From Chloroflexota bacterium (GTDB lineage: Bacteria > Chloroflexota > Anaerolineae > B4-G1 > SLSP01): a stretch of 64,000 nucleotides of DNA. The stretch is from positions 1,012 to 65,011 of the forward strand of contig JAIOAS010000002.1 of the NCBI GenBank assembly GCA_019873725.1, in the 5' to 3' direction. How positions within the stretch are numbered: position 1 is the first letter of the stretch; every line of letters begins with the position of its first letter. The translations under genes and the position numbers were made by a program. This document shows, piece by piece, positions 552 to 54,786 of this stretch. The notes under the pieces are model-generated. The model ran no database searches, had not been told where the DNA came from, and was given only the letters and a program-made list of their open reading frames with translations.

Positions 552-734
552 CGTATGACTCGATTTTGGAACGTGAAAATGGATCGCTATCACGTTACTG
601 CCTGGTTGATTTTGTACTACTCTAATCCAAGTATAGGTACCTTTTGCAGACAGTCAAAATACCGTTGGCTCCCCACCCCTGCTGCGCTGCCAGATTTTCT
701 ATACGAAATCCCGAAATTCACCGGCTTAACCCCC

Positions 735-762
735 TTGATTTCGCATGCCCGCCATGTATAAT
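735..762 (+). promoter_or_regulatory. sigma70-like promoter (-35 TTGATT, 16-nt spacer, -10 TATAAT)
   Basis: cccTTGATTtcgcatgcccgccatgTATAATaaaaatatagcgg. The -10 is perfect and the -35 matches consensus at 4/6. Followed by a structured region and a terminator. Confidence 0.45.
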
Positions 763-769
763 AAAAATA

Positions 770-926
770 TAGCGGTAGAAAAACTACCGTGAAAAGGTCC
801 GGGGCTTCGGCTCCAAACCGCAGGAACCTCCAAGCCTGCGGCGTCCGGGTCAAGTAATGTGGCCTGGAAATGAAAGGGGAGGACTTGGAACTTCGGTTCC
901 AGGTCCTCCCCTTTTTTGTTTGCGTC
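770..926 (+). ncRNA. candidate structured leader or small RNA (~155 nt) between promoter and intrinsic terminator, class unknown
   Basis: Local hairpins ggtagAAAAActacc and ccgcagg...cctgcgg, a repeated GTCCGGG motif, and a terminator 17 nt before the RBS/ATG of the first tad-locus gene. The arrangement suggests an attenuator/riboswitch or an sRNA. Confidence 0.3.
872..926 (+). terminator. intrinsic terminator (16-bp stem, UUCG loop, U-tract)
   Basis: ggggaggacttggaac-TTCG-gttccaggtcctcccc followed by TTTTTTGTTTG. Confidence 0.65.
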
Positions 927-943
927 AAAGAGGGGTTAGGAAA

Positions 944-1543
944 ATGCGTCATATCGTCAGAATCACAGGGATCAGCGTCGGGCTGTGCTTGCTGCTGGGC
1001 TGCAATATCTTTTCGCTCTTGCCGTTGCCCATCGAGCCGCTGCCGGTGCGTCCGGTCGTCGTCGCCACGGCAACACCCACAGCGGGACAACTGCGCGTCA
1101 CAAGGGCATACACCGCCACGCACATCGCGCCCCCCACGGCAAGCAACGCCGTGACGCTGACACAACCCTTGGGTCTGACCCTATCTGCTCAGCCCACTGG
1201 CGTATTCATCGTCGTCGTGGCCGAGGTGCAGAACACGGGCACGGTGCGCCTTGACCTGGCCCAGGCTGAATTCACCCTGGACGACAATGCCGGGCACAGC
1301 TACTCCCGCGCGCAAGCCACCGAACTCGCCCTGAGCGTCGTCGAAGGGCCGCTGAGCGTAGCCGGAGGGCCAGCTTTGACGGACACTGCTCCGCTCTCCG
1401 ATCAAACCTTGCCGCCCAACGCACAAGTCGCGGGCTACCTGGTCTTTGACGTCAGCCCGGCCTACACCGCGCCCCTGCGCCTGACTGCGCGGATACCCGG
1501 CAGCCAAACCATCACATCCAATACTTTCACCGTGGAGGACTAA
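944..1543 (+). CDS. secreted lipoprotein, DUF4352-like
   Basis: N-terminus MRHIVRITGISVGLCLLLGC is a lipoprotein-type signal with cysteine. The C-terminal region (AQAEFTLDDNAGHSYS...GYLVFDVSPAYTAPLRLTARIPG) resembles the DUF4352 fold. RBS gagggg/aggaaa upstream. Confidence 0.55.
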   Translation: MRHIVRITGISVGLCLLLGCNIFSLLPLPIEPLPVRPVVVATATPTAGQLRVTRAYTATHIAPPTASNAVTLTQPLGLTLSAQPTGVFIVVVAEVQNTGTVRLDLAQAEFTLDDNAGHSYSRAQATELALSVVEGPLSVAGGPALTDTAPLSDQTLPPNAQVAGYLVFDVSPAYTAPLRLTARIPGSQTITSNTFTVED

Positions 1544-2275
1544 ATGCATACCAACGTACTCTGTGTCGCCCCCCAAGAAGCCCAGGCCGCAGCCCTGAGC
1601 GACGCCGTAACCGCCGTACCGGAGGTGCTGGTCGTCGGTATCTGCGACCCGCAAAAGACGTGGCAAATGCTAAAGTTCGTTGATGCCAACCTGATCGTTA
1701 CCCTGGAAGGGGCAGAGATTCCCGACGTTGAAAAACTCAGTATTCCAGTATTGCCTGTCCCGGAAAAGGAGGCCGCCGAGGTCCTGACCGCGTACCTGCA
1801 AGCGCAAGCGGCAAAGCAGCCGCCAGCGAAACAGGCTGCGCCCGCCACTGCTGCTCCCGTGGCAACCCCACGGTTGCCCTTCGCGCCACTTCGCCGCCAA
1901 CTGCGCCTCGGCTTCTACGGCACACGCGGTGGCGTCGGCACAACGACCGCCGTGGTCACCGCGGCCAAACTCCTGGCTACGCAGGGCAAGCGCGTAGCAC
2001 TCTTCGACGCAGCACAGCGCGGTGATCCCTATCTATTATTGGACCTTACTCCGTCCGACCAACCGGCCACGACCGGCAATATCACCGTATACCCCGATCT
2101 GGCCCTGGATGACGCGCGCGTCAGTTACGACGCGATCATCGTAGACGGCGGGCGCGAACGGCGGGCTTTCCCCGCGCGCTGGATCGCGATGGACAAACCG
2201 TTGTCTGAAGCGGCTGTCGCCAAACTGTTGGGTATTGACCTTGCGTTGCTCACTCAGGAGCAAGCCCAATGCTAA
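1544..2275 (+). CDS. TadZ/CpaE-like pseudo-ATPase (receiver-like N-domain + MinD/ParA-like domain lacking P-loop lysine)
   Basis: Walker-A position reads FYGTRGGVGTTT, where consensus is xKGGxGK[ST]; both lysines are absent. The N-terminal ~100 aa are receiver-like, as in TadZ. Confidence 0.55.
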   Translation: MHTNVLCVAPQEAQAAALSDAVTAVPEVLVVGICDPQKTWQMLKFVDANLIVTLEGAEIPDVEKLSIPVLPVPEKEAAEVLTAYLQAQAAKQPPAKQAAPATAAPVATPRLPFAPLRRQLRLGFYGTRGGVGTTTAVVTAAKLLATQGKRVALFDAAQRGDPYLLLDLTPSDQPATTGNITVYPDLALDDARVSYDAIIVDGGRERRAFPARWIAMDKPLSEAAVAKLLGIDLALLTQEQAQC

Positions 2276-2829
2276 TTCTCGTGGTGGGTGCAAAGGGCGG
2301 CATTGGCACAACCACGCTGGCGCAACACCTGTGCCGGCAGGCCAACGCCGTCCCCCTGGATGCCGCCGACGGCACATTGGCCCTGCAAATGGCTGCGCCA
2401 GGCGCGCCAGTGCTTGATCTAGGCTTCACCGCGCAGTGGACAGCGAGTCGCCGGGGACGCGCTGTCGAGCAAGCGGTCGAGACGCGGCAACCGTTGCTGT
2501 GGAGCGCCGCCTGCACCGTGTGGCGCGCGCCGGTGATGGCCTTCGTGTGGGACGCGGCAGCATTGGGACACGTCATTGCCGACGGCGGCACAACCCCGCC
2601 GCCCGCCCTGGTAGACCTCGCCAGCCTAATCCTCATCGTCAGCGCCGATAACCCGGTCGCCCAATGGCACGAGCGCCGCCTCAAGCAGCAATGGCCGCAG
2701 GCCCACGCCGTGGTCGGTGATCTGAAGGCGGCAGCCCAGGCGATTGCGGAGGAAACGTTGGGCGTGAAGAAGAAGCTTTCAGCTATCAGCTTTCAGCGTT
2801 CAGCCAGCAGTCCAAAAGCTGACCGCTGA
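2269..2829 (+). CDS. MinD/ParA-like protein with degenerate Walker A (GAKGGIGTTT)
   Basis: MLILVVGAKGGIGTTTLAQ: the signature lysine is present but the P-loop GK[ST] lysine is replaced by T. The C-terminal tail (KKKLSAISFQRSASSPKADR) is encoded by a hairpin-repeat element. Confidence 0.5.
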   Translation: MLILVVGAKGGIGTTTLAQHLCRQANAVPLDAADGTLALQMAAPGAPVLDLGFTAQWTASRRGRAVEQAVETRQPLLWSAACTVWRAPVMAFVWDAAALGHVIADGGTTPPPALVDLASLILIVSADNPVAQWHERRLKQQWPQAHAVVGDLKAAAQAIAEETLGVKKKLSAISFQRSASSPKADR

Positions 2830-2846
2830 CGGCTGAAAGCTAACGG
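2774..2846. repeat. tandem-heptamer inverted-repeat hairpin element (AGCTKWC / GCTGACG arms)
   Basis: agctttcagctatcagctttcagcgttcagccagc ... agctgaccgctgacggctgaaagctaacggc. Confidence 0.6.
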
Positions 2847-2874
2847 CAAATCATTCATCAAGGAGACAAACGAA

Positions 2875-3831
2875 ATGCGTATTCTGAAATCCATTCAATT
2901 CTGGGTCGGCCTGCTGCTCGTCGGGGGTGCGTTCGTGGGCGTGCTGCTGTTTGCGCAACTCACCACCCCGCCCACCTACGAAGTCGCCATCGCGGTGCAG
3001 GACATTCCGGCGTACACATCACTGCAAGACGCCTATACCAACGGTTATATTGCGTTGGACAAGCAATCGTTCAGCCCGTCGCTCTTGCAAGTCGTGCTGA
3101 CGCCCGAAACCTTGCAAGCGATGCTGGCCGATGGGGTCTTCGTCGAGACGGTCCGCGCGGGCGATGTGCTCAACCGAGGGCGCATTGCCACCGGTGAGAA
3201 CGCACAGAAAGTGCGCCGGCTGGCGCTGGCCCTCACCGATCCGCAATTGGTCATCAAGTCCATCCCAGTGGACGCCGAAACCACACCGTACATCGCGGTC
3301 GGCGACCTGGTGGACTTATACACCACGTTAGGCACCGTGCGCGCCACCGAGTTGGCGACCAGCACCGTGCCGCCTTTGCCCGCCGGGGTCACGCCACCCC
3401 CGCCCACACCGGAGCCGCTGCCCGACTACGAGGCGTTGACTCAGCCCGTGACGGTCACGCTGCAACTGCCGGTGACCAAGCGGGTGGTGGCCGGGGCCAT
3501 CGTGGTGCGCGTCAACCACGAGCAGATCGCCAACCCGCAGTATGGGGCGGTGACCGCCGATGGGCAACCCCAACCCGCACCGTTTATCGCCGGGCCGGTG
3601 GTGGGCGTGGACGTCCTCGTCCCCGAAACCACCGCCGAGAGCCTGGATTGGGCGGTGTTCAACGGCAAGATGTCCCTCGCGGTACGCCCCGCCATCTGGC
3701 GCGCGACCGTCGAGGCCGGGCAAGCCTTGCCGGAGACTCCGGGCTTCGCGTGGGAAGACTTCAATGCGGTGTTTTGGGGTGGTAGACGGCAGACGGTAGA
3801 CAGTAGACAGGGGGAGACGGAGACACGGTAA
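2875..3831 (+). CDS. cpaB: Flp pilus assembly protein CpaB/RcpC
   Basis: N-terminal TM helix (WVGLLLVGGAFVGVLLF), then SAF-like region (YEVAIAVQDIPAYTSL...GDVLNRGRI) and CpaB C-terminal domain. RBS aaggagacaaacgaaATG. Confidence 0.75.
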   Translation: MRILKSIQFWVGLLLVGGAFVGVLLFAQLTTPPTYEVAIAVQDIPAYTSLQDAYTNGYIALDKQSFSPSLLQVVLTPETLQAMLADGVFVETVRAGDVLNRGRIATGENAQKVRRLALALTDPQLVIKSIPVDAETTPYIAVGDLVDLYTTLGTVRATELATSTVPPLPAGVTPPPPTPEPLPDYEALTQPVTVTLQLPVTKRVVAGAIVVRVNHEQIANPQYGAVTADGQPQPAPFIAGPVVGVDVLVPETTAESLDWAVFNGKMSLAVRPAIWRATVEAGQALPETPGFAWEDFNAVFWGGRRQTVDSRQGETETR

Positions 3832-3940
3832 TGGGATGACGGGGTGACAAGGTGAGTGGGTGACAGCGTGAGATTCACCCTTTGTCCCCTCTCCCCTTCC
3901 CCCCGCCCCGTCTACCGTCTACCGTCTACTGTCTACTCTC
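3781..3940. repeat. tandem-heptamer inverted-repeat hairpin element (GGTAGAC family), nested arms
   Basis: ggtagacggcagacggtagacagtagacag ... ccccgtctaccgtctaccgtctactgtctac. Inner G-rich/C-rich arms pair with G-U wobbles. Confidence 0.65.
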
Positions 3941-3953
3941 CGAAGGAGGAACT

Positions 3954-5321
3954 ATGGAACGCATCAAGATTGTCATCGGCACAAAGGTATGGGACGACGT
4001 GCAGCGTCTGGAACGGGCGCTGTCCGAGATACCCGAAATGCAAATCGTCGCCGGGCCAACCACAGCTTCAGGGGTGTTTGCCGACGCCACCGAGATGGAG
4101 GCGGACATCGTACTTTTGTCGCCCACACTGCCAGGCTTTCGGCCAGAACTGGTGAGTGAACTGCTGCACTACGACGAGCGGCCCATTGCTTGCATTGGGC
4201 TGCTGCCCCCGCTGGAATCGCGCACTGACGAGTTACTGGCTCTGGGGATGAAAGGCCACGTCTCGTTGCCCCTCGACGACGCGCAGTTGCGGCGCTTGCT
4301 GGAACTGATCCCCAACGCCGTCACCCAGGCGCGCGCCGAACGGGCCAGCAGCAGCTACGTCGCCCTGGACACACCCACACTCTACACTCTGGCGGAGGCC
4401 GGGTGGCGACGCATGGTCATCGCCTTGTGGGGCACGGGCGGCGGCGTGGGCAAGACCAGCCTGGCGATCAACCTCGCGGCAGCCTTGGGCGTCATCGGCC
4501 AGCGCACTACCCTGTTGATGGACCTGGATATGACCCGCGGCGCAGTCGCGCCCCGCCTGGGCCTATCCCCGAAGGAAAACATCTACGGCCTGATCAATAC
4601 TTTACTGCTGGACTATCTGCGCACTCGGAATGCCAGTTGCCCGCCGCAGACGCTCCAGACGAAAGTGCAACTGTGGAACACCAGGCTGGCCTCGAAGCTG
4701 CACTGCCTGAGCGGTATCGCCTCAATGGAGGTCGCGGGCCGGGCAGAGTTCCGCGACGATCCGCACCGCACGCAGGCACTGACCCGCGCCATCATCGACA
4801 CCGCGCGCAAGCTCTATGACTTTGTGATCATCGACCTGGGGCCGGACATCAACAATGACGTGCATTTCGCCGCACTGGACGCCGCCGACCTGGTGCTGAC
4901 CGTGGTGCGGCCCGATGTGGCCGATATGCACTCCACCGGTCAGACTGTGCCGCGCCTGAAGCAGACCTTTGGCGAGGGCATCGGCAAGTTCGAGTTGGTC
5001 ATCAACCAGTGGAGCACCGAAACAGGTCTCAAGCTGAAGGACGTGATCAGCACCATTGGGATGAAGAAGTTCGCCCAAGTGCCCTACGATCCGCAGTTCA
5101 CCTACAGCAACAACCACCAGATGCCCTTCGTGCTGGAAAAGCCCAATCCCACGTCGGACGCGATTGTGTCAATGGCGGTGCGCTTTTACCCGCCGTTAGC
5201 GAACACCTGGGTTAGCCGTGGCGGGCAGATCGAAGGCGAGGCGGCAGCGTTCAAGCCACCGGAGCGTCGCAAAGAGCCGGGGCTGTGGCAGCAGGTGCAG
5301 AGTGTGTTCGTGGGGAAATGA
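3954..5321 (+). CDS. cpaE: Flp pilus assembly ATPase-like protein CpaE/TadZ
   Basis: Receiver-like N-domain (MERIKIVIGTKVWDD...IVLLSP) plus MinD/ParA domain with ALWGTGGGVGKTSLAINLAAAL. RBS gaaggaggaactATG. The upstream in-frame ORF start at 3882 lies inside a repeat element. Confidence 0.8.
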   Translation: MERIKIVIGTKVWDDVQRLERALSEIPEMQIVAGPTTASGVFADATEMEADIVLLSPTLPGFRPELVSELLHYDERPIACIGLLPPLESRTDELLALGMKGHVSLPLDDAQLRRLLELIPNAVTQARAERASSSYVALDTPTLYTLAEAGWRRMVIALWGTGGGVGKTSLAINLAAALGVIGQRTTLLMDLDMTRGAVAPRLGLSPKENIYGLINTLLLDYLRTRNASCPPQTLQTKVQLWNTRLASKLHCLSGIASMEVAGRAEFRDDPHRTQALTRAIIDTARKLYDFVIIDLGPDINNDVHFAALDAADLVLTVVRPDVADMHSTGQTVPRLKQTFGEGIGKFELVINQWSTETGLKLKDVISTIGMKKFAQVPYDPQFTYSNNHQMPFVLEKPNPTSDAIVSMAVRFYPPLANTWVSRGGQIEGEAAAFKPPERRKEPGLWQQVQSVFVGK

Positions 5322-5323
5322 AA

Positions 5324-5462
5324 CTGGTTGCTAGTTGCTGGTTGCTGGTTGCTGGTTGCTTGAAGCTCGATGCTCGATCCAGCAACGTGTAACCAGCAAC
5401 AAGTAACGAGTATCCAGTATCGAGTATCCAGTATCCAGCATCGAGCAACCAGCAACAAACAA
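5324..5462. repeat. tandem-heptamer inverted-repeat hairpin element (CTGGTTG / CCAGCAA family)
   Basis: ctggttgctagttgctggttgctggttgctggttgc...ccagcaacgtgtaaccagcaacaagtaacgagtatccagtatcgag. Confidence 0.65.
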
Positions 5463-5478
5463 CGAGGAGAGAGGAACA

Positions 5479-6279
5479 ATGAAAGAAAGCATCTTTTTGG
5501 AACGCGAAGTAGATCACGCGCGGCGCATTGGACTGTCGGAACGTCGGACCGGGATGTTGCGCCGGACGTTGGCGTTGAAACGGGAAGGATATACCCCCAG
5601 GCGCATCCGTGTCCAGATGTGCAAGGCCAACGTCACCTGGCGTGTGGCGCTGCGGACGCAGGAGGAGTTGGAACAGGAATTAGGCGTGGCGTGGGAAGGT
5701 GGGGTTTACGTCCCTGACAGTCCCGCTGTGCCCGCCGAGCAAGCGCAAGCCGTGGCCGAGGCCGGACGTGAACAGGCGCGGGGTAGCAACAAGCACCTCC
5801 GCGCCCAGTACGGTCTGCACAATGGCAGCACCGCGCCATACGGCTACGTTTTTGGCCCGGACATCACCATCAAGACCGCCGACGGGCAATCTTTGACCGG
5901 ACACAGCTTAGTCCCTGACCCAGATACAGCGGTTGTCGTAGCCGACATCTTCGCACAGTTCATCGGTGGGGCGTCGCCGTATACCATCGCCGCCGACCTG
6001 AACCGGCGCGGCATCGGCAGTCCCAACGGCGGACGCTGGGGCGAGGCCAACGTGCGCGACATCGTGCGCCGCGCGCCGCTGTACTCCGGGTACGTTGTCT
6101 ACCACGACGCGGCCCACAAGCAGGCGCGCTGGACGGGGATGCTGTACCCCGGCCAACACGAGGCCCTGATCGATTGGGAAACCACCCTGGCAGTCCTGGC
6201 TGTCACCGGACGCACATTGGAATGGACGTTTGGCCCGACACGGGAAGAAGCCACGCTTGCGACACCGGAGGTAGCCTGA
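5479..6279 (+). CDS. HTH + serine-recombinase 'Recombinase' domain protein lacking resolvase catalytic domain
   Basis: APYGYVFGPD...LVPDPDTAVVVADIFAQFIGGASPYTIAADLNRRGIGSPNGGRWGEANVRDIVRRAPLYSGYVVYH matches the Pfam Recombinase (PF07508) consensus. No S-Q-Y catalytic motif. N-terminal HTH-like RRIGLSERRTGMLRRTL. Confidence 0.55.
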   Translation: MKESIFLEREVDHARRIGLSERRTGMLRRTLALKREGYTPRRIRVQMCKANVTWRVALRTQEELEQELGVAWEGGVYVPDSPAVPAEQAQAVAEAGREQARGSNKHLRAQYGLHNGSTAPYGYVFGPDITIKTADGQSLTGHSLVPDPDTAVVVADIFAQFIGGASPYTIAADLNRRGIGSPNGGRWGEANVRDIVRRAPLYSGYVVYHDAAHKQARWTGMLYPGQHEALIDWETTLAVLAVTGRTLEWTFGPTREEATLATPEVA

Positions 6280-7616
6280 TGGCAGCGCCCTCGACCTTTG
6301 CCCAACGGGTCGCCGCGCACGCCACTGCGGAGTACCCCGATCCCTACACGGGCTTGCTCGCTGCTGCCCGTGACCGCCTGGCCGGACAGTTTAGCCTGGA
6401 AGCCTTGCGCACGCCCACTGCCCACGTCGAACGCGAGGCCGAGACGCTGCTGCGTTCCCTGGTCGAAGAACACGCGAATGCCGCGCTGCAACACGGCCGG
6501 CCCTTTACCGAGCCGCTGGAGGAGCTGGTCGCGCGCTTGCAGTACGACATCTTTGGCTACGGCGTCATCACCCCGTATCTGAATATGCCCACCGTCGAGG
6601 AAATTATGATCAACGGCCCGGACGTGATCTGGGTGGACGACGCCGAACGGGGAATGTACCGCGCCAGCGTGCGATTCGAGAGTCCGCGTGAGGTGCAGAA
6701 ACTCGTCGACCGCATCGCTGCGCGGCACGGACGGCGCTTCGACCGCTCCAACCCACGGGTCAACGCCAAGATGCCGGACGGCAGCCGCCTCAACGCCGTG
6801 ATGGAACCGCTGGTGGACAATGTGCCCGTCGCGGTGACGATCCGCCGCCACCGCCTGGTCGCCCGCACGCTGGATGACCTGGTGCGATTAGGGACGCTCA
6901 CTGCCGACATTGCGGGTTTCCTTAAGGAATGCGTGCTGGGCCGCCTCAACCTCATCGTCACTGGCGGCACGGGATCGGGCAAGACCAACACCCTCAACGC
7001 CCTGTGCGCCGTTCTCCCCCCGGAAGAACGGGTGGTCACCGTGGAAGATACCCCGGAACTCCAACTCGGTTTGGATAACTGGATTGCGATGGTCACCACG
7101 GAAGAAACTGAAGAAGGCCAACGTCCGATCACGCTGGACGACCTGGTGATCAACGCCTTGCGGATGCGCCCCGACCGCATCGTCACCGGTGAGGCGCGCG
7201 GGGCGGAGATTCGCTCCGTCCTGATGGCGGCTAACACCGGCCACGACGGGCAACTGCTGACCTTGCACTCCAATGGCGTCCACGAGATTGCCAACCGCGT
7301 GGTGCAGATGTGGCAACTGGCCGACTCAGCGATGGCCCCCGGCGTGATCACGCGTTATCTGGTCGATGCCTTCGACCTGGTGCTCTACATCGAGCGCGTC
7401 ACGGTCAACGGCCAACGCCGCCGCATCGTGCGCGAGGTCGCTGAGTTGCTGCCGTCGCGCCAGATGGAAGGTGACATCCCAGCGATCAATGTACTGTGGC
7501 AGGATACCGGCAATGGCTTGCAGTGGACGGGTCTGTATCCGCAGACGCTGGAAGAGAGCATCTACCTGCGCACCGGGCAACAGGTCAGCCTGCACCGCTA
7601 CTTCAAACGGGGGTGA
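6279..7616 (+). CDS. cpaF: Flp pilus assembly ATPase CpaF/TadA (VirB11-type secretion ATPase)
   Basis: LIVTGGTGSGKTNTLNAL Walker A, VTVEDTPELQL, RPDRIVTGEARG, and His box AANTGHDGQLLTLHSN. The ATG overlaps the previous stop (TGATGG). Confidence 0.9.
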   Translation: MAAPSTFAQRVAAHATAEYPDPYTGLLAAARDRLAGQFSLEALRTPTAHVEREAETLLRSLVEEHANAALQHGRPFTEPLEELVARLQYDIFGYGVITPYLNMPTVEEIMINGPDVIWVDDAERGMYRASVRFESPREVQKLVDRIAARHGRRFDRSNPRVNAKMPDGSRLNAVMEPLVDNVPVAVTIRRHRLVARTLDDLVRLGTLTADIAGFLKECVLGRLNLIVTGGTGSGKTNTLNALCAVLPPEERVVTVEDTPELQLGLDNWIAMVTTEETEEGQRPITLDDLVINALRMRPDRIVTGEARGAEIRSVLMAANTGHDGQLLTLHSNGVHEIANRVVQMWQLADSAMAPGVITRYLVDAFDLVLYIERVTVNGQRRRIVREVAELLPSRQMEGDIPAINVLWQDTGNGLQWTGLYPQTLEESIYLRTGQQVSLHRYFKRG

Positions 7617-7621
7617 GGACG

Positions 7622-7750
7622 ATGCGTTTTCTATGGGGAACACAAGCTGAAGCCGAGGTCAGTATGGTGCTGGTCGTTGGGCTGGTTCTGGTCTGCCTCG
7701 TAGTATTTGTGGCGTGTGCCGCGATGGGCGCGCCGCTGGGAGCTGTGTAG
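7622..7750 (+). CDS. small hydrophobic protein (42 aa), possible Flp-like or minor pilin
   Basis: MRFLWGTQAEAEVSMVLVVGLVLVCLVVFVACAAMGAPLGAV: a Gly followed by acidic residues and a ~22-aa hydrophobic helix. RBS ggtgaggac 6 nt upstream. Located between cpaF and cpaA. Confidence 0.3.
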   Translation: MRFLWGTQAEAEVSMVLVVGLVLVCLVVFVACAAMGAPLGAV

Positions 7751-8451
7751 TGAGTCAAGGGACAACCGCTGTCACACTCGTGCCCGCCCTGGTCGGCCTC
7801 TGGCTGGCTTGGTTGAGCTACGGCGATCGGCGGACACGCAACGTCCCGGCCTGGGCCACAGCCTTGCCCCTGGCAGTGTTGGGATTGCTGCGTGTTGTTG
7901 TAGTCCCACCGGATGGCGTGGTTGTACCTGGCGGCGCAGCGGTGGGGTTCGCCCTGCTGATGCTCTTGCTGTCCGACACGCCGTCCGCCATCTTCCCTGC
8001 CGGGGCCGCTGCGTTCTGCGCCGGACTCTCCGGGGAGCAGGCGCAAGTCCTGGTAGGCAGTTGGATCGCTGCGTTGGTGCTCGTTGACCTGAACATCTGG
8101 GGCGCAGGGGACGGCAAAGTGTTGGCCGTGTTGACGGCGCTGTATCCCGATGTGCGGGTACTGGTCGCAATGGGTATAGCTTTGCTCGCGGGCGGTGTGG
8201 TGACCTTGCTCCGGCACCGCCCACGCATTGGCGAACGCCGCACTTTCCCCGCCATCCCCTGGTTGGCAGTGGGAACAATGCTCTACCTGGTGTTGGTAGC
8301 GGTCAGCAATCAGCGTTCAGCTATCAGCTTCGGACTGCCAGCATCAAGCAACCAGCTTCCAGCATCCAATATTCAGCATTCACTCCCAAGTGCAAGGACT
8401 TCGGACTTTCGACTTTGGACTTGGGACTACTTTCAAGGAGGTTCACATTGA
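7750..8451 (+). CDS. cpaA: prepilin peptidase CpaA/TadV (A24 family)
   Basis: Polytopic membrane protein with LVDLNIWGAGDGKVLAVLTALYPD (the aspartyl peptidase DGK-type motif). GTG start at 7750 or ATG at 7714. The last ~48 aa are encoded by a repeat element and overlap the tadB start. Confidence 0.65.
   Translation: MSQGTTAVTLVPALVGLWLAWLSYGDRRTRNVPAWATALPLAVLGLLRVVVVPPDGVVVPGGAAVGFALLMLLLSDTPSAIFPAGAAAFCAGLSGEQAQVLVGSWIAALVLVDLNIWGAGDGKVLAVLTALYPDVRVLVAMGIALLAGGVVTLLRHRPRIGERRTFPAIPWLAVGTMLYLVLVAVSNQRSAISFGLPASSNQLPASNIQHSLPSARTSDFRLWTWDYFQGGSH
8301..8432. repeat. tandem-heptamer repeat element (CAGCNNT / CCAGC / GGACTT arms) encoding the cpaA C-terminal tail
   Basis: ggtcagcaatcagcgttcagctatcagcttcggactgccagcatcaagcaaccagcttccagcatcc...ggacttcggactttcgactttggacttgggac. 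Confidence 0.55.
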
Positions 8452-9332
8452 ATACACCGACTTTCCTTTTCGCCGCCCTGGCCGCCGCCGGGGTGCTCCT
8501 GGCCTGGATCGGGGCGACAACACGCGCTTACGTGCGCCTCGTACCCATCGATCAACGGGGAATACTCGCGCAGTTGAACACCCGCTTGCAGGCCGCTGAT
8601 ATTCCATTGTCCGCACGCGAGTTCCTGCTCACGGGTCTCGGGATCGGCGCGGTCTTGGCCGGGGGCGCGCTGGTCATCCTGGGGCCGACGGTTTTGGCCG
8701 CGGTCGTCATTTGCCTCGGTCCCGTCATCTATTGGCAGGCGTGGGCAGGCAAGCAGGAACGCTTCAAGCGCGAGTACGTCAACGCCCTCAGCCAGGCCAT
8801 CGAGACCTTGCTGCGGGCCTACAGCGCCAATCCCAACTTGACCGCCGCCTTGCAGGAGGCCACGCCCTATATGCGCGAACCGGTGCGTGGCGACTTCGTG
8901 CAGGTGGTCACATCCTTGCAGACCCGCGCGACGCTCAGCGACGCCCTCTACCAGGTGGCCGAACGGCGGCACAACCCGTACTTCGATATGCTGGCCGAGG
9001 CCCTCGTGGTGCGCGAGCAACAGGGCGGCAAACTCAAGACCGTCCTCGAAGGACTGCAAAGCCTGCTGCGTGGCGTGATCCAGATTCAGAACGAAGTCCG
9101 CGCCCGGCAAACACAGCCCAAACTGGAAGGCACGATTGTGGCCATTGCGCCGTTCGTTTTCCTCGCACTGCTCAAGCTGGCGTTGCGCGACTACGAGGGC
9201 GGCTTCTACGCCACGCTCGACGGGCAGATCGTGTTAGCCGTCGCCATTGTCTTCTCCGGGGTGGCTTATCTGCTCTCTCAGAAGATCGCCAAGGCCGGAC
9301 TTGACCTGGAAGCTCAGGGAGGTGCGCGATGA
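8448..9332 (+). CDS. tadB: Flp pilus assembly protein TadB (T2SS-F family)
   Basis: TTG start 7 nt after AAGGAGG. Membrane protein with T2SSF-like region (LSQAIETLLRAYSANPNLTAALQEATPYMREPVRGDF). Confidence 0.7.
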   Translation: MNTPTFLFAALAAAGVLLAWIGATTRAYVRLVPIDQRGILAQLNTRLQAADIPLSAREFLLTGLGIGAVLAGGALVILGPTVLAAVVICLGPVIYWQAWAGKQERFKREYVNALSQAIETLLRAYSANPNLTAALQEATPYMREPVRGDFVQVVTSLQTRATLSDALYQVAERRHNPYFDMLAEALVVREQQGGKLKTVLEGLQSLLRGVIQIQNEVRARQTQPKLEGTIVAIAPFVFLALLKLALRDYEGGFYATLDGQIVLAVAIVFSGVAYLLSQKIAKAGLDLEAQGGAR

Positions 9333-10237
9333 CGTACAGTCTGTGGTTCGCTTTCCTGGGTGGTCTGGGGACGTTCCTGGCGCTCAACGCCGGGCAACGC
9401 CGCGCCCCACGTACTTTGCGCGTGCGCCTGGGACTGGAACAGGTGCAAGCGCGGCGGCCCCTGGTAGATCGCTTGTTTGGCACGTGGGCGGAGAGCCTGT
9501 TACAGCGACGCGACGCCACCGACGTGGAAACGCGGCTCAAGCAAGCGGGGTTCTGGCAACGGGTCGGGGCGCTGTATCCCGATGTGCGCACCTTCTACGC
9601 CTACAAGGTCGCCAGCGCCACGCTGTTGGCCGTGCTGGGCTTGGGCGCAGGGCTGATCCTGGCGTCTCTGGGCGGTTTCAGTCCTGCGACGGGCCTGGCT
9701 GTCGCTGCGGCGACTGGTGCGCTGGGCTACTTCTTGCCGGATATGGACTTGAAGGGCAAGGTCTCGCGGCGCGACGACCAGATGCTCGCCGATATGGCTT
9801 CAGCGTTGGATCGCCTGGCGAACTTCCTGGCGGCGGGGTATCCCCTGGCGCAGGCGGTGCAGCAGTTGGCGGAGCGCCCCGGTGGGGTGTTCGTGGCCGA
9901 ACTGCGGCCTGTCGCGGCGCACTACAACGTCAGCGGCGATCTGGCGGCGGGGGTGGAAGCCTTGTTGGAAAACAACGGCAACCTGCCGCCGCTGATCCCG
10001 TTCGTGACGCTGCTGCGCACGACGGCGCGGTTGGGCGGCGGCGTGAGTGAACAGTTACGCGATTTGGCCGCAGAGCTACGGACGGAGTTGACCCAGCGCA
10101 TCACAGCGCGGGGCTACCGCAACACGGTCTTGATGATCGTCCCGGCCTTCTTCGCCATCCTCGCCACGCTGCTGGTCTTGGCCGCGCCCGGCGCGTTACG
10201 CGCCTTTGCCAGCCTGGGGACGGGCGGCTTTCTGTAA
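9329..10237 (+). CDS. tadC: Flp pilus assembly protein TadC (T2SS-F family)
   Basis: Overlapping start (ATGA). Membrane protein with T2SSF-like region (LDRLANFLAAGYPLAQAVQQLAERPGGVFVAEL). Confidence 0.7.
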   Translation: MTYSLWFAFLGGLGTFLALNAGQRRAPRTLRVRLGLEQVQARRPLVDRLFGTWAESLLQRRDATDVETRLKQAGFWQRVGALYPDVRTFYAYKVASATLLAVLGLGAGLILASLGGFSPATGLAVAAATGALGYFLPDMDLKGKVSRRDDQMLADMASALDRLANFLAAGYPLAQAVQQLAERPGGVFVAELRPVAAHYNVSGDLAAGVEALLENNGNLPPLIPFVTLLRTTARLGGGVSEQLRDLAAELRTELTQRITARGYRNTVLMIVPAFFAILATLLVLAAPGALRAFASLGTGGFL

Positions 10238-10264
10238 TAGCCGTTACGCGCCTGGCCGTTTTCT

Positions 10265-10346
10265 GACAGGATTAACAGGATTTTCAGGATTGGCAAAGGC
10301 TTTATGAGGTCTTTTTTCATCCTGTTCATCCTGGCAATCCTGTCCA
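10265..10346. repeat. CAGGATT-family inverted tandem repeat; paralog at 60713-60784
   Basis: gacaggattaacaggattttcaggatt ... catcctgttcatcctggcaatcctgtcc. The left arm is the exact reverse complement of the arm at 60758-60784. Confidence 0.7.
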
Positions 10347-10502
10347 AAGAAAGGAGGTGATGCCTATTGAATGACGACAACTAACCCATAACGGTCCCGC
10401 ACCTTACCGGGGGCGCAGTGCGTTCCACTGCGTCCCCACTTAACCGAAGCCATTCATAGTTCAGCCAAATCAGTTTCAGGCAGAAGGAGGAGAGATAAGC
10501 CT

Positions 10503-10787
10503 ATGAACATCGTGCAACGCACTCAAGATACAGTCACCCTGACCTATCTGCGGGTCAGCCAGCGTCTCGCGGCGCATCCCATCGCGCGACGGCTCAGCGC
10601 CTTGCAGCAGGGACGGGTCAAGCAGGCTTTGGCCTGCGAAGAGGGACAAGGCTTGCTGGAGTACATCATCGGCATCGCCGGGGTCTTTGTCGTCGCCGCT
10701 GCGGTGTTGGCGCTGTACCGCGCCATCCGCGGCAAGTACGGCGAAGCGACCAACAGCGTCAATTCGCTGACCATCACCGCGCCCTAA
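10503..10787 (+). CDS. flp: Flp family type IVb pilin (long leader)
   Basis: EEGQGLLEYIIGIAGVFVVAAAVLAL matches the G/XXXXEY Flp processing motif and is followed by a hydrophobic helix. Strong RBS aggagg. Unusually long ~47-aa leader. Confidence 0.7.
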   Translation: MNIVQRTQDTVTLTYLRVSQRLAAHPIARRLSALQQGRVKQALACEEGQGLLEYIIGIAGVFVVAAAVLALYRAIRGKYGEATNSVNSLTITAP

Positions 10788-10862
10788 GGCGTGCGCCGGG
10801 GAAGGCCCGTGCGCCGCCCTGGTGGACGCGCGGTCTTCCCCGGCCTGAAAGGAGTCACACAG

Positions 10863-11279
10863 ATGAACCAAGTGACACAACATCAAAAAGAGCAAGGCCA
10901 GGCCCTCATCGAGATGCTGTTGGTCTTGCCGGTCTTTCTGTTCCTGACCGGGGCGATCATCGGCATCGGCTGGGCCTACTGGGTGCGCCTGAATCACGTC
11001 GCCTATGCCCAGGATGCGACCACGATGGCGGGCAAAGCCAACGCCGTGGATGCGGGCCAGGCGTGGGCCGCGCGTTTTATCCAAGGGTCCAACGTGGACT
11101 TCGGGGCGCAGACGACGGTTGCGCCGTTGACGCTGCAACGCGGCGTCCAGGCCACGGCCCGGTACCAGGCCCCGGCGCTACTGCTGTGGGACTTAGCCGC
11201 ACCGGAAGTCACCGCCGGGGCGTTCACCCGCTGGGAGCAGTTCTACCCCGGCCCACCCGCGCCGGGCGCTTTTGAATGA
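10863..11279 (+). CDS. tadE: TadE-like pseudopilin
   Basis: HQKEQGQALIEMLLVLPVFLFLTGAIIGIG matches the TadE/TadG N-terminal motif. Confidence 0.7.
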   Translation: MNQVTQHQKEQGQALIEMLLVLPVFLFLTGAIIGIGWAYWVRLNHVAYAQDATTMAGKANAVDAGQAWAARFIQGSNVDFGAQTTVAPLTLQRGVQATARYQAPALLLWDLAAPEVTAGAFTRWEQFYPGPPAPGAFE

Positions 11280-11317
11280 CGGTGACACATACATCACAAG
11301 GAAAGGATAAATACACA

Positions 11318-13903
11318 ATGCGAAAGAAACGAATCTTGACCCTCGCTCTACTGGGCATTCTCATCATTTCCAACGTCGTGCGCGCCGTGGCTGCCCCGGC
11401 TGCACCGACTGCGCCATCGCGCCTCTTGACCTACCAGGGGCACCTACTGGACACAACAGGCTTGCCGGTGGCCGACGGTGCATACTCGATGGCCTTCAGC
11501 CTGTGGGACGCCGCGACAGACGGCGCACAGCTTTGGGGACCCGAAGCGCATACCGTGACCGTCACGGACGGCTACTTTGCGCTGCTCTTGGGCACGGAGA
11601 TACCCCTCGACGCGGCACACTTCACCGACGACACCTACCTGGAGATCGCGGTGAGCGGCGAGACGCTCACCTCCCGCCAGCCGTTGGGCGCTGTAGCGTA
11701 TGCGCTGGGTGCATCCCAGGCCGAGCACGCTGTCACTGCCGATGATGCGGCGCTGTTGGGCGGGGCCGCACCGGAGGTCTACCACGACTGGCGCAATCTC
11801 ACCCACGTCCCAGACGGCTTTGCCGATGGCCTCGACAATGACACGCTCTACACCGACGACGATGCGCTGTCAGCCGTGCAAGCTGCCGGGTATCTCACCG
11901 CCACCGGCGTCATCGAGGTGTTGAGCACCACGCACACGCTGACCGTCACCGTGGCCCACGCCCTGACCGCGAATGACGCGGAGACCCTCAACGGGCAGGC
12001 CGGGGACTACTACCTGGACTGGCGCAACTTCAACCATATCCCGGACGATTTTGCTGACGGTGTGGACAACGACACGACCTACAGCGCCGGTTTTGGTCTA
12101 GCACTGGAAGACGCCACCTTCAGCGTCATCGGCGCACCGTGGTCAGGCTTGGTCGGCATCCCGGCGGGCTTTGCTGACGGCGTGGACAACGACACAGTTT
12201 ACACCGATGAAGACGCACTATTGGCTGTGGAAGCCGCCGGATATGTCACCTCAAGCGAGGTCATCTCCGTGGTCAACCAGGCCGGCTATGTGACCGACGT
12301 GCAAGTGCTGGCCCTCATCACCAACACCACGTCACACACTTCGACGTATGCCTTTACTGCTGGAGATGCCGCGACCCTCAATGGACACGCCTGGGACTAC
12401 TACCTGGACTGGCGCAACTTCACGCACGTGCCTGACGATTTCACTGATGGCGTAGACAACGACACGACCTATACTGCCGGTTCTGGGCTGCGCCTGGACG
12501 GAACGATGTTTAGCGTCACCGGCGCACCGTGGTCAGGACTGACGGGCGTGCCTACCGGGTTTGCCGACGGGGTGGACAATGACACGACCTACGCGGCAAG
12601 CACTGGAATCACCCTGAGCGGGACACAGTTCAGTGTCGCTGTACCATATCGCTTGCCGCAAAGCTGCACCAGCGGGCAGATCGCTGAATGGAACGGGACG
12701 ACCTGGGTATGTGCTTCGGACAACGACAGCGGCGGCGACATCACCGCGGTCACCGCAGGGACAGGACTGACCGGCGGTGGCACAACGGGCAGCGTTGCTC
12801 TCGCCGCCGACACCGCTTATCTACAACGCCGCGTCAGCAGCACGTGCGCGGTGGGCAGCAGTATCCGCGCCATTAACGCCGACGGCACGGTGCTCTGCGA
12901 GGCCGACGACAATACCACCTACACTGCTGGGGATGGTCTGGCCCTGATCGGCACGCAGTTCAGCCTGTCCACACCCTATCAACTTCCCCAAACATGCGCC
13001 AACGGCCAAATGCCACAATGGAATGGCGCGGTGTGGGACTGCGGTAGTCCAGTTGTCCCTGGCTACGCTCGCACCCTGGTCGTCGCTGCGAGTGGCGGGG
13101 ACTTCATCAGCGTCCAGGCCGCCGTGAACAGCATCACCGACGCCAGTGCGACGAACCCGTACCTTGTCTGGATCGCGCCCGGTGTGTATGCCGAGACGGT
13201 GACGCTCAAGCCCTATGTCCACTTGCAAGGCGCGGGGCGCGATGTCACCGTGCTGCAAGGCAACATCACCGACGACGATGGTAGTCCAACGGACAAAGCG
13301 ACGCTGATCCTGGACAACAATACCAGCGTGCGTGACCTGTCGGTGAATAACAGCGGCAGCGAGGGGCAAACCCGCGTGGGGATCCTCGTGCCAATGGGAA
13401 AAAGCAATGTGCGCGTGGTCGATGTCAACGTGAGCAGTGGAGGCACAGCGCGCAGCAGTTTCGCGCTCTGGATCGCCGGACGCGCCACGCTGGAAAATGT
13501 CACCGCCACGGCCAGCGGGGGGACGGTCATCAACGCCGCCATGATGGTCAAGGCGCAGTCTGCGTATCCGCCGTTTCCCGCGGAAGCGACGCTCTACGAT
13601 GGCGTGTACACGGCCAGCGGAACGAACGCGATGGGCATCAAGGTGGAGAACCTCGACAGCCGCATGGTCGTCAATGCTGCTTACATCTCCGCTACCGAGG
13701 CGCTATACAGTGATGGCTGGATCGAGGTCTACCACAGCCGCCTGGAAGCGCCCACCCACGTGGTGGTCAACACACAAGCCAGCCAACCGCAGCGCGCGCT
13801 GGTCAAGTACACCGAGTTTGTGGGCGCGGGGGGCATCTTCAACACCATCACCTGTGTAGCCGTGAGTCGCGGTGCGACCTTCGGGGCGACGACGTGTCCG
13901 TAA
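11318..13903 (+). CDS. large secreted repeat protein with C-terminal right-handed beta-helix (pectin-lyase-fold) domain; candidate adhesin
   Basis: Signal peptide MRKKRILTLALLGILIISNVVRAVAA. About six copies of DWRN[LF]THVPD[GD]F[AT]DG[LV]DNDT[LT]YT. C-terminal VVAASGGDFISVQAAVNSI...GVYAETVTLKPYVHLQGAG beta-helix signature. Confidence 0.6.
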   Translation: MRKKRILTLALLGILIISNVVRAVAAPAAPTAPSRLLTYQGHLLDTTGLPVADGAYSMAFSLWDAATDGAQLWGPEAHTVTVTDGYFALLLGTEIPLDAAHFTDDTYLEIAVSGETLTSRQPLGAVAYALGASQAEHAVTADDAALLGGAAPEVYHDWRNLTHVPDGFADGLDNDTLYTDDDALSAVQAAGYLTATGVIEVLSTTHTLTVTVAHALTANDAETLNGQAGDYYLDWRNFNHIPDDFADGVDNDTTYSAGFGLALEDATFSVIGAPWSGLVGIPAGFADGVDNDTVYTDEDALLAVEAAGYVTSSEVISVVNQAGYVTDVQVLALITNTTSHTSTYAFTAGDAATLNGHAWDYYLDWRNFTHVPDDFTDGVDNDTTYTAGSGLRLDGTMFSVTGAPWSGLTGVPTGFADGVDNDTTYAASTGITLSGTQFSVAVPYRLPQSCTSGQIAEWNGTTWVCASDNDSGGDITAVTAGTGLTGGGTTGSVALAADTAYLQRRVSSTCAVGSSIRAINADGTVLCEADDNTTYTAGDGLALIGTQFSLSTPYQLPQTCANGQMPQWNGAVWDCGSPVVPGYARTLVVAASGGDFISVQAAVNSITDASATNPYLVWIAPGVYAETVTLKPYVHLQGAGRDVTVLQGNITDDDGSPTDKATLILDNNTSVRDLSVNNSGSEGQTRVGILVPMGKSNVRVVDVNVSSGGTARSSFALWIAGRATLENVTATASGGTVINAAMMVKAQSAYPPFPAEATLYDGVYTASGTNAMGIKVENLDSRMVVNAAYISATEALYSDGWIEVYHSRLEAPTHVVVNTQASQPQRALVKYTEFVGAGGIFNTITCVAVSRGATFGATTCP

Positions 13904-13912
13904 AGGAGGTCA

Positions 13913-15280
13913 ATGATGCGACATACACTGTTACTCCTGCTCCTGCTGAGCTGCTTGCTCGCTGCCCCTGTAGCAGCGCAAGCCCCCGGTCTGCAGCGCG
14001 TCACGGCGGACACGGCCAACGCCGTCGCCGGTGGCACGCTGACCAACGGGAACTACACGCTGCACGGCACGCTGGGCCAGACCAGCGTCGCCACCTCGCG
14101 GGGCACGACCGCCACCCTGACCGGCGGTATCTGGTCCGGCATCAACGCCGCTGAGGTGTTGGTGCTCGAAAAGACCTACCGCGACGTCACCCCCGCACGT
14201 ACCGAAGTCGGGGAGACACTGACCTTCATCGTCGCCGTGACCAACAACGGGGTGCGCCCGCAGGCTAACATCGTGGTCAGTGACACGCTACCGGTGGGCT
14301 TGACCTTGCTACCGCAGAGTGTTACGGCGGACAAGGGTACGGTCACGGCAAGTGACAACGCGCTCACGCTACACCTGGCGACGTTGAGCTACGAGGAAAT
14401 TGCGGTGCTCACCTATCGCGCCACGGTGGATGTGGGGACGGAGGGGCAAACACTGGTCAACACGGCGGTCGCGCAGAGCGATACTTATGGGCCGGTTAGC
14501 GAGTCGGCCAGTGTATCCGTATATCGTCCGACCCGCATCTTCCTGCCGTTGGTGATGCGCGGCTATCCCCCTACGCCGCCCGTAGTGCAGGTTGCGGATG
14601 CGCCGGGAACGTGTCCGGGCTTGAGCATTGCGCTGGACATCTTCTACCGCGAGGACTTCGACGGGGAGAACGACAACGACTGCTTTGCCTTCACTGCCGT
14701 CGCCGGGCAGACCTATGTGCTGGAAACGGGCGACCTGGGAGCACAGGCCGATACCCTACTGACCTTGTATGCCGCGACGGACTGTGGGACACCCCTGGCG
14801 GAGAACGACGACATCAACTACCCCCACGACGTGGCCTCGCGCATTGTCTGGACGGCTCCGGCAAACGGTGTCTACAGCGTCCTGGTGCGCAGCTACGACT
14901 GGCGCGTCTATGGGTCGGGCACGGAGTACACGTTCCGGGTAACGCGCAGCAATGGAGTTACGCCGCAGAGCGCACCGCCGTCCACTGACAAGCCCGTGCC
15001 ACCGCCTACACCGATGCCCGACACCGACGCCCGTGTTTCACGGCGCGTACCAGGTTTAGCCGCGCCCCTCGCCGAGAAGCCGACCCCGCCGCCTACGCCG
15101 GTCAAGCCGCCGGTTGCCCCGACGCCCACCGGTCTAGCGACGCCGGAGGCCACTCCGGTAGTGACACAGATCGTGTTGTTGCCGGAAACGGGTTACGCGG
15201 GACGACTCAGTGGAGCCGGTCTGGTGTTGGCTTTGCTGGGTGCTGGTGCGCTGTGGCGTGTGCGGAGGTCCGTAGCGTGA
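13913..15280 (+). CDS. LPXTG-anchored surface protein with DUF11-like repeat and PPC (pre-peptidase C-terminal) domain
   Basis: Signal peptide. DFDGENDNDCFAF...YDWRVYGSGTEYTFRV (PPC). Pro-rich linker. C-terminal LPETG + hydrophobic segment + RVRRS (sortase sorting signal). Confidence 0.65.
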   Translation: MMRHTLLLLLLLSCLLAAPVAAQAPGLQRVTADTANAVAGGTLTNGNYTLHGTLGQTSVATSRGTTATLTGGIWSGINAAEVLVLEKTYRDVTPARTEVGETLTFIVAVTNNGVRPQANIVVSDTLPVGLTLLPQSVTADKGTVTASDNALTLHLATLSYEEIAVLTYRATVDVGTEGQTLVNTAVAQSDTYGPVSESASVSVYRPTRIFLPLVMRGYPPTPPVVQVADAPGTCPGLSIALDIFYREDFDGENDNDCFAFTAVAGQTYVLETGDLGAQADTLLTLYAATDCGTPLAENDDINYPHDVASRIVWTAPANGVYSVLVRSYDWRVYGSGTEYTFRVTRSNGVTPQSAPPSTDKPVPPPTPMPDTDARVSRRVPGLAAPLAEKPTPPPTPVKPPVAPTPTGLATPEATPVVTQIVLLPETGYAGRLSGAGLVLALLGAGALWRVRRSVA

Positions 15281-16581: not shown

Positions 16582-16585
16582 AACG

Positions 16586-17032
16586 ATGCAAATTCGTAAC
16601 TCGCAACTCGCAACTCAGCCCGAACAAGGCCAGGCCCTCATCGAAATGCTCATCGCCTTGCCGCTGCTGCTCCTGATCCTGGCCGCGGTCATCGGCTTCG
16701 GGCGGGTGCTCTTTGTCGCCCTCGCCGTTGACCAGGCCGCCTTCACCGGTGGACGCTACGCCGCCGAGAGCCTGAATCCCTACCAGGCCGCGTACCAGGC
16801 CTACCGCGCCACGGCAATGAACCTGACCGCTAACGGGATCGACGCTGCGCCGATGGCCTGGCAACTCGACGCCGCCGGCTGGCAGCGTGGCGGGACGGTG
16901 ACCAACTACGCCGGCGTCGCCGTGCCCGTCAATGACATCCCGCTGGCCCCGCTGCTCTTCGGCAGCGACCGCGTGACGCTCTGGCAGGGTGCGACGTTCC
17001 GCATCGAAAGGTGGAAGTCGAAATGGCAGTGA
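16586..17032 (+). CDS. TadE/TadG-like pseudopilin
   Basis: QPEQGQALIEMLIALPLLLLILAAVIG. RBS gggaggtgaaacgATG. Confidence 0.7.
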   Translation: MQIRNSQLATQPEQGQALIEMLIALPLLLLILAAVIGFGRVLFVALAVDQAAFTGGRYAAESLNPYQAAYQAYRATAMNLTANGIDAAPMAWQLDAAGWQRGGTVTNYAGVAVPVNDIPLAPLLFGSDRVTLWQGATFRIERWKSKWQ

Positions 17033-17493: not shown

Positions 17494-17494
17494 C

Positions 17495-17656
17495 GGAGAT
17501 TGAGAGAGTGGGAGATTGAGAGAATGGGTGAATGGAGAATCAGCGAATGAGCGAATCAGCGTGCATCGCCTTTCTTCTTTCCCCCTTACTCCTTACTCCT
17601 TACTCCCTACTCCTATTCACCATTCTTAACTCGCAACTCATAACTCGCAACTCGCA
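17495..17656. repeat. compound tandem repeats (GAGATTGAGAGARTGGG x2; GAATCAGCG; CTTACTC xN; AACTCGC xN)
   Basis: The cccttactccttactccttactccctactcc run is the inverse of ggagtaggaagtatggagtagggagtaaggg at 17040-17070, so the pair flanks tadG. AACTCGC runs also occur at 16596-16620 and 54731-54768. Confidence 0.55.
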
Positions 17657-17665
17657 AGGAGAACA

Positions 17666-18382: not shown

Positions 18383-18387
18383 AGGAG

Positions 18388-20010: not shown

Positions 20011-20030
20011 TCTCACAAGGAGGAACGTTT

Positions 20031-54768: not shown

Positions 54769-54786
54769 CCCAAGGAGGTAACTCGT

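Follow-up and report, generated by a model that had tools for sequence, protein, structure and literature searches.

The region immediately upstream of a Tad-type gene cluster in the window (by which we mean the whole 64,000-nt stretch of Chloroflexota DNA that was analysed) carries a promoter, a leader RNA predicted to form five hairpins and an intrinsic terminator, and these recur together as a multi-copy cassette in related genomes. We propose that this clade-specific cassette provides the operon behind it with a promoter and with a 5' leader that contains a terminator, and that the operon would be expressed by read-through; judged from sequence comparison, the probability of this leader-attenuator reading is roughly 0.5. 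The cassette is probably a transcription gate and not a known riboswitch. Its RNA family is new, being absent from Rfam, while the general kind is already known, and it is confined to a clade of uncultured Anaerolineae.

A promoter scan of the + strand revealed a -35 hexamer TTGATT (735-740) separated by a 16-nt spacer from a -10 hexamer TATAAT (757-762), with 10 of 12 positions matching the σ70 consensus (Table 1); four promoter-like sites fell within the first 3 kb, against 0.8 +/- 0.8 expected. The spacer contains a CATG-N5-CATG element, which is conserved among type A and type B copies of the cassette (see below). The start of the predicted transcript was placed ca. 7 nt past the -10 hexamer and its end within the U-tract. 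Folding of a 158-nt transcript yielded five separate hairpins, H1, Hx, H2, H3 and the terminator T, with an energy of -80.4 kcal/mol (z = -6.7), a stability reached by none of 200 shuffled sequences. A covariance model of the family, R1, matched positions 763-917 at 158 bits and, with filters off, matched nothing else in the window, which therefore holds no second copy. The terminator stem begins 110-114 nt past the -10 hexamer; its core (G876-C891 paired with G896-C911) is extended by four further A-U or G-U pairs, and on its own the hairpin has a folding energy of -37.4 kcal/mol (z = -8.3). An earlier sequence-only reading of this DNA had described a TTGATT-16-TATAAT promoter followed some 110 nt later by a GC-rich 16-bp stem with a UUCG loop and U6GU3, directly before the tad locus; all of this is borne out, the 16-bp stem being the core of a 20-pair hairpin (872-915). 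The ribosome binding site and start codon lie right behind the U-tract, as was also described, with ATG 944 at 22 nt past the last U.

Table 1. Features of the cassette, the gene cluster behind it and the heptamer arrays of the window
Feature	Position	Strand	Description and basis
C-run	730-734	+	Abuts the -35 hexamer; CCCCC(C) in most copies (ca. 100 copies compared)
σ70-type promoter	735-762	+	Promoter scan; constant distance to H1 in related loci
Predicted primary transcript, ca. 150 nt	769-921	+	Deduced from promoter and terminator positions
Hairpin H1	772-790	+	GCGGUAG / CUACCGU, loop AAAAA; z = -6.0
Hairpin Hx	801-814	+	GGGGC-UUCG-GCUCC; helix 2, 99% paired
Hairpin H2	818-841	+	Stem CCGCAGG / CCUGCGG; 10-nt loop AACCUCCAAG at 825-834
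Hairpin H3	844-868	+	UCCGGGUCA / UGGCCUGGA; folding and covariation
Intrinsic terminator T	872-921	+	20-bp stem 872-891 / 896-915, UUCG 892-895, U6GU3 912-921 (T912-917, G918, T919-921)
Translation start of first gene	930-946	+	Shine-Dalgarno GAGGGG 930-935, ATG 944-946; from sequence
First gene, DUF4352 lipoprotein	944-1543	+	Domain annotation
Co-directional gene cluster, ca. 19 kb	944-19875	+	Annotation and promoter scan
Flp-type pilin ORF (…EEGQGLLEYIIGIAGVFVVAAAVLALYRAIRGKY…)	about 10550-10787	+	After tadC-like gene
Heptamer arrays	2781-2852, 3876-3940, 5306-5480, 8298-8390, 16591-16673, 17621-17673, 19852-20036, 38910-38991, 39752-39870, 44685-44883, 54708-54778, 55705-55818, 59475-59539		

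Covariation was assessed in an alignment of 45 representatives (A1), with the five-hairpin fold of the window as the tested structure. Standard pairs were found in 91% of cells and 23 pairs had changed on both sides, a result that none of 500 shuffles reached; when the partner was slid by 1-3 columns, only 39-55% of cells remained paired. The signal is strongest in H1, H3 and the upper half of T: three pairs changed on both sides in H1 (helix 1), whose sequence is variable, seven of nine in H3 (helix 4), which is highly variable in sequence and length, and eight in the terminator (helix 5, 96% paired). Helix 3 (H2) is 98% paired, with three such changes. Covariation in homologous upstream regions, which had been suggested as a check, was thus found, and at the level of sequence it supports all five hairpins.

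Two elements stand out by their constancy. The H2 loop and its closing pairs are the same across all lineages (consensus AGG-AA(N)CCUYCANG-CCU), while the outer stem covaries; the core of the loop, ACCUCC, is an anti-Shine-Dalgarno sequence. The terminator base (AAAGGGGAGG / CCUCCCCUUUU) is likewise invariant and the upper stem covaries. Across the 93 loci of the metagenome scan described below, this invariance is partly by construction, since the DNA pattern used there fixed the H2 loop and AAAGGGGAGG; the two elements are equally invariant in loci found through proteins, without the DNA pattern. A U-tract follows the G+C-rich terminator hairpin in 45 of 45 representatives. The rest of the RNA turns over. 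Hx is missing from the L007, L010-12, L006, L070 and L051 versions, and the last three of these, the most reduced members, have little beyond H2 and T, H1 and H3 being missing as well. The most distant members retain only H2 and the terminator base, and do without three of the four hairpins that precede the terminator.

The co-directional genes behind the cassette code for the lipoprotein and for ParA-like, TadZ-like, TadA/CpaF-like, TadB/C-like, Flp pilin, TadE-like and other proteins. The genes are of the Tad type, with two T2SSF proteins, a T2SSE ATPase and a CpaE/TadZ-like ParA ATPase among their products. In the region from 900 to 20800, no other recognisable σ70-like promoter was found on the + strand; the scan returned a single site, on the - strand, where 3.1 sites were expected. 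The upstream neighbour, a TPR gene starting at 551 on the minus strand, is divergent, and so read-in from the left is not possible. To the extent that a sequence scan can recognise promoters, the cassette promoter is the sole σ70-like + strand promoter for the ca. 19-kb cluster. Internal terminators are not in excess in the cluster (16 found, 13 expected).

Several further features of the cluster and the window were noted. The Flp-type pilin ORF is not at the head of the cluster here, while in the distant locus L008 an flp gene occupies the position of the cassette. An ORF at 5479-6279 (+), between the TadZ-like and TadA-like genes, has PF07508 ('Recombinase') as its sole domain and may be a serine recombinase remnant; heptamer arrays come before it, and it overlaps the TadA-like ORF at the start of the latter. 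Arrays of 7-nt tandem repeats (variants GCTGGTT, GCTGGAT, CCAGCAT, GCTGACG, AACTCGC and GTCTACC; Table 1) fill many intergenic spacers of the window; they are often inverted and would give long imperfect hairpins in mRNA. We take these arrays to recall the STRR heptamers of cyanobacteria. A 79-nt inverted repeat (10239-10317 / 60731-60809) has arms that are 78% complementary and 50 kb apart, and two different genes are each preceded by a copy of a 65-nt direct repeat (3876-3940 / 59475-59539; 82% identical).

A scan with the TadZ-like protein placed the window among Anaerolineae metagenome-assembled genomes, and further loci were reached via homologues of the lipoprotein. The cassette lies directly upstream of the first tad-cluster gene in L002, L003, L005-L007, L010-12, L106, L107, L109 and L110, and the lipoproteins of these protein-anchored loci range from 41% to 100% identity. 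In L002, L003 and L005, the intergenic region is 78-85% identical to that of the window. In L006 and L007, where the lipoproteins are 47-50% identical, the cassette is shorter and diverged, and in the remaining seven loci (lipoprotein identity 41-75%) the element occupies the corresponding position. In every protein-anchored locus, the start codon follows the U-tract after about 17-25 nt, and in all retrieved orthologous loci with a cassette the terminator lies, in the same orientation, behind the only promoter and ahead of the first gene. Only L008 is without a cassette (TadZ 65%, lipoprotein 32% identical). The sequence-only reading had named a lack of conservation upstream of orthologous loci as part of what would refute it; such conservation is present in the protein-anchored loci with that one exception. 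The upstream neighbours vary, being a divergent TPR gene, a divergent σ-factor gene or a co-oriented gene. We conclude that the cassette moves together with the operon downstream of it.

Metagenome contigs were scanned with an exact pattern, which revealed 93 loci with 68 distinct RNA sequences, and several single contigs carry two or three copies. Similarity between copies extends from the C-run just before the -35 hexamer to the U-tract, and the repeated unit therefore consists of promoter, RNA and terminator. Where the context is intact, the terminator is usually followed after 17-115 nt (438 nt in L051) by the start of a co-oriented ORF that has a Shine-Dalgarno sequence. What lies downstream is the tad lipoprotein, small proteins of plasmid-like regions, a membrane protein with a 1331-aa protein, or the context of L096. 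In context A, the lipoprotein/tad cluster follows the cassette. In context B, the cassette is followed, ca. 28 nt past the terminator, by the start of unannotated small proteins, 60-100 aa long, that carry an arginine-rich helix (…ILARRGRQLREAE…) and homologues of which were not found in the window; actin-like partition proteins, excisionase-like HTH proteins and Arc/RHH repressors occur nearby, and these neighbourhoods look plasmid-like or phage-like. Examples are type B copies in L093 (3578-7525), L044, L054 and L083, beside an actin-like partition protein (ALP_N, phrog_691), an excisionase-like HTH protein and an Arc/RHH repressor. Context C consists of ACAGGAT heptamer repeats, which resemble the heptamer arrays of the window, followed by genes for a 132-aa membrane protein and then the 1331-aa protein. 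Neither Pfam nor PHROGs gave a match for the small proteins of context B or for the 132-aa and 1331-aa proteins of context C, and IMG/VR viral contigs contained no match to the cassette pattern.

Nine contigs carry both a type C and a type A copy on one strand, the former 5-23 kb upstream of the latter. RNAs that are mosaics between types occur in L042, L023, L096 and L103, which indicates recombination between paralogs. Intact cassettes without a co-oriented gene were found in two contexts, one a truncated A context with a convergent gene behind the cassette (L085/L098) and the other with a convergent IS110-like transposase gene behind it (L069/L024); both bear marks of rearrangement. Many contigs (L023, L037, L038, L044, L049, L058, L068, L083 and L086) end within the cassette or within about 300 nt of it, as a multi-copy repeat that breaks short-read assemblies would cause them to do. 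In L025, the -35 region of a type C cassette overlaps a perfect 15-bp palindrome (1417-1431, CCTTGAAATTCAAGG), and the spacers of many type A copies, e.g., that of L002, carry another palindrome, GGCATGCC. Both look like operator sites, and cassette promoters may therefore be under different repressors while one leader is shared.

The RNA could not be assigned to a known family. A cmscan of the whole window against Rfam 15, the check that had been proposed, returned no family at gathering score, in agreement with the earlier failure to match the aptamer region to riboswitch consensus sequences; at E <= 10, the interval 500-1200 gave only chance matches to hairpins of the miRNA type, and six other family members gave no match at gathering or permissive thresholds. 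The c-di-GMP-type control that had been suggested for the pilus genes is not upheld, since neither the GEMM-I nor the c-di-GMP-II model matched the window or the six members, and c-di-GMP, ZTP, guanidine, Mn and glycine riboswitches are excluded as identities for the same lack of Rfam matches. The suggestion of a T-box-like leader also fails: RF00230 was unmatched, and the downstream gene codes for a lipoprotein and not for an aminoacyl-tRNA or amino-acid function. A hidden small ORF or leader peptide was rejected, as relatives keep neither ATG 857 nor the overlapping frame 870-1154; as read from the sequences, no start codon lies at a usable distance from GGAGG except in L006. The RNA is not a remnant of an flp pilin gene, because a separate Flp-like ORF is present in the window downstream of tadC and the RNA has no pilin-like frame. 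Nor is it part of a type III toxin-antitoxin system, there being no tandem repeats in 763-921 and no endoRNase toxin downstream, where DUF4352, small or membrane proteins are encoded instead. A retron and an IS-associated guide or bridge RNA were dismissed for want of repeats and of a constant partner protein; the IS110-like gene adjoins only one orphan copy, convergently. A full-text literature search found no description of this cassette.

The leader-attenuator reading rests on the absence of any other σ70-like + strand promoter across the ca. 19-kb cluster. A leader acting in cis is favoured by the fixed position before co-oriented genes whose ribosome binding sites follow the U-tract, by the change of upstream neighbours, and by the lack of room for another promoter in contexts A and B. 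According to this reading, RNA polymerase would start at the near-consensus promoter, transcribe the five-hairpin leader and meet a very strong intrinsic terminator shortly before the first start codon. From the anatomy of the site and its comparison among relatives, most transcripts would be expected to end there, giving an abundant RNA of ca. 150 nt, and the operon would be made only by those polymerases that read through, presumably in a regulated manner. Regulation may act via the two invariant elements, namely the H2 loop with its AA(N)CCUYCANG consensus and GGAGG in the terminator 5' arm. Their sequences are complementary, and a pseudoknot between them could keep the terminator base from closing; alternatively, a protein antiterminator could bind these two elements. 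Either a pseudoknot or a protein-bound hairpin would, as a working hypothesis, explain why exactly H2 and the terminator base are invariant. In the same genomes, the leader also stands before two or more further kinds of operon, which suggests a small regulon.

Alternative pairings that might relieve termination were considered. CCUYC of the H2 loop can pair with GGAGG of the terminator 5' arm in 45 of 45 sequences, with no changes on both sides, the bases varying only between C and U opposite G. A helix between linker GGUCC and GGAC(UU) is possible in 86% of cells, again with no changes on both sides, and closes a multi-helix junction in truncated-transcript folds of the window and of several type C and mosaic copies. 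In such folds, pairing of the terminator 5' arm with alternative partners brings a gain of only 2-12 kcal/mol, and which partners are used differs between lineages; in L051, reading of the sequence shows an upstream segment, UUCUAAUUC, complementary to the terminator arm of the same copy, GGAUUUAGAA. Since the paired bases do not vary, the candidate antiterminator pairings are unproven. An anti-terminator, which had been named earlier as something to look for, thus has candidates compatible with 86-100% of cells and covariation in none of them. Of the attenuating leader itself, the proposed geometry is real and conserved, while the riboswitch or T-box identity attached to it finds no Rfam match and is at odds with the dispensable hairpins. 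The intact orphan cassettes that lack a co-oriented gene count against a leader and fit an RNA with a function of its own.

Going beyond a simple leader, H2 and the terminator GGAGG could form the recognition or pseudoknot module for a single factor, an RNA-level antitermination switch that would join mobile-element, giant-protein and Tad pilus operons as one regulon in filamentous wastewater Anaerolineae. We regard so broad a scheme as doubtful. The factor could be a small arginine-rich protein such as those behind the plasmid-like copies, free 30S subunits or another global signal.

The rival that survives best, though we consider it rather unlikely, is a family of independently transcribed, multi-copy, trans-acting sRNAs, in which the H2 loop (ACCUCC / CCUUC) would be a seed for Shine-Dalgarno regions and the neighbouring operons would be bystanders or transcribed only by leakage. 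An independent sRNA had been offered earlier as the alternative to a leader. Its strong promoter and terminator, the several near-identical paralogs per genome and the orphan copies that stay intact all speak for it, as does the H2 hairpin, with its conserved, unpaired loop on top of a stem that covaries. There is also a precedent: according to one report (PMC7547250), the terminated RNA of a lambdoid late promoter can itself act as an sRNA, StxS of Stx phages. However, intact copies are co-oriented with a gene at the short distances given above (the longest again in L051), and so constant a placement before operons is not expected of free-standing sRNA genes; contexts A and B leave the downstream gene no room for a promoter of its own. 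The window contains no extended complementarity to the H2 loop beyond the RNA gene itself, 8-mers complementary to the loop were as frequent as expected by chance when 1 Mb of related loci was examined, and the 5-6 nt loop core is no more specific than any anti-Shine-Dalgarno sequence. The two models are compatible, as a terminated leader can also act in trans.

We find it distinctly unlikely that the cassette is a constitutive attenuator, whose fixed, small read-through would keep a costly pilus or mobile-element operon low behind a strong promoter while the hairpins merely stabilise the RNA or are neutral. Such a device would match the promoter-terminator geometry, would need no antiterminator, none being demonstrable, and would tolerate the loss of H1, Hx and H3 in some lineages. 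It would not account for the H2 loop and terminator-base sequence, which are kept where the other stems have turned over completely, as a purely structural terminator needs no such invariance; and a 20-bp hairpin of -37 kcal/mol with a tract of U6-U8 should let very few polymerases pass into a 19-kb operon. A metabolite or second-messenger riboswitch (e.g., for c-di-GMP), in which a ligand-binding junction, formed by GGUCC-GGACUU around Hx, H2 and H3, would tie up part of the terminator 5' arm, has a transcriptional expression platform and the widely possible, fold-supported junction described above in its favour, but is very improbable, as its closing helix lacks covariation, no Rfam aptamer matched, no junction nucleotides are seen to be conserved apart from GUC, the downstream genes have no metabolic theme, and the cassette keeps its position where H1, Hx and H3 (L006, L070, L051) or Hx (L007, L010-12) are lost; in L006, L070 and L051 H2 and T alone persist, and no multi-helix aptamer core is common to all members. 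A complex ligand-binding aptamer is likewise unlikely, because all helices beyond H2 and T are dispensable and the core is too small.

Regulatory RNAs of Chloroflexota are almost unexplored, and the Anaerolineae in question are abundant, uncultured filaments of activated sludge. A well-defined RNA family supported by covariation, and absent from Rfam, is now available for them, and an identical leader ties the Tad pilus cluster to at least two other operon types. If read-through is regulated, the cassette would be the point at which these bacteria control the expression of pili and adhesion; if it is not, the cassette is still a useful annotation, which explains assembly breaks and marks operon starts. 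In either case, it offers a compact hairpin-plus-terminator module open to in vitro study.

The cassette shares features with several known systems. In the type III toxin-antitoxin system ToxIN, a promoter is followed by a structured RNA, a terminator and a gene expressed by read-through. The order of elements is the same in the cassette, but the RNA lacks tandem repeats, and the proteins encoded downstream are lipoproteins, small proteins or membrane proteins instead of a ToxN/AbiQ-type RNase. RsaE/RoxS, LhrC and the streptococcal csRNAs are multi-copy or conserved RNAs that present C/U-rich, anti-Shine-Dalgarno-like unpaired motifs on hairpins and end in a Rho-independent terminator. The anti-Shine-Dalgarno-like H2 loop, the multiple copies and the terminator recall these Gram-positive sRNAs, whereas the fixed position before co-oriented operons, the lack of an Rfam match and of predicted targets, and the Shine-Dalgarno-like GGGGAGG conserved in the terminator, which has no counterpart in the C-rich-loop families, set the cassette apart.

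The likeness to pseudoknot-type transcriptional ON riboswitches, such as that for fluoride (crcB), lies in the small hairpin loop, whose CCUYC could pair with GGAGG of the terminator arm in each of the 45 aligned sequences; a stabilised pseudoknot would prevent termination. The differences are the missing Rfam match, the lack of pseudoknot covariation and the absence of any ligand hint from the downstream genes. HK022 put, the Bacillus EAR element and LoaP-dependent leaders place a structured leader RNA at long surface-structure operons, in which terminators are bypassed. The cassette likewise puts a structured leader at the start of a long surface-structure operon, but it does not match the Rfam EAR model. 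Processive antitermination systems differ further in that the cluster shows no excess of internal terminators, for which reason processivity is not obviously needed, and no NusG paralog was identified.

In the lambdoid PR'-tR' module (6S RNA), a strong promoter is followed immediately by a terminator, a default RNA of ca. 150-200 nt is made, and the long operon behind requires antitermination. The cassette differs in that no Q-like or N-like protein and no qut or nut site was identified for it, and in that it is chromosomal and multi-copy, stands before a Tad cluster, and has no sequence or Rfam similarity to the phage module and no match in IMG/VR. What the two have in common is a promoter, then a terminator and a long operon behind, and some copies of the cassette lie in plasmid-like or phage-like neighbourhoods. 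In concept, the lambdoid PR'-tR' module is the closest known arrangement.
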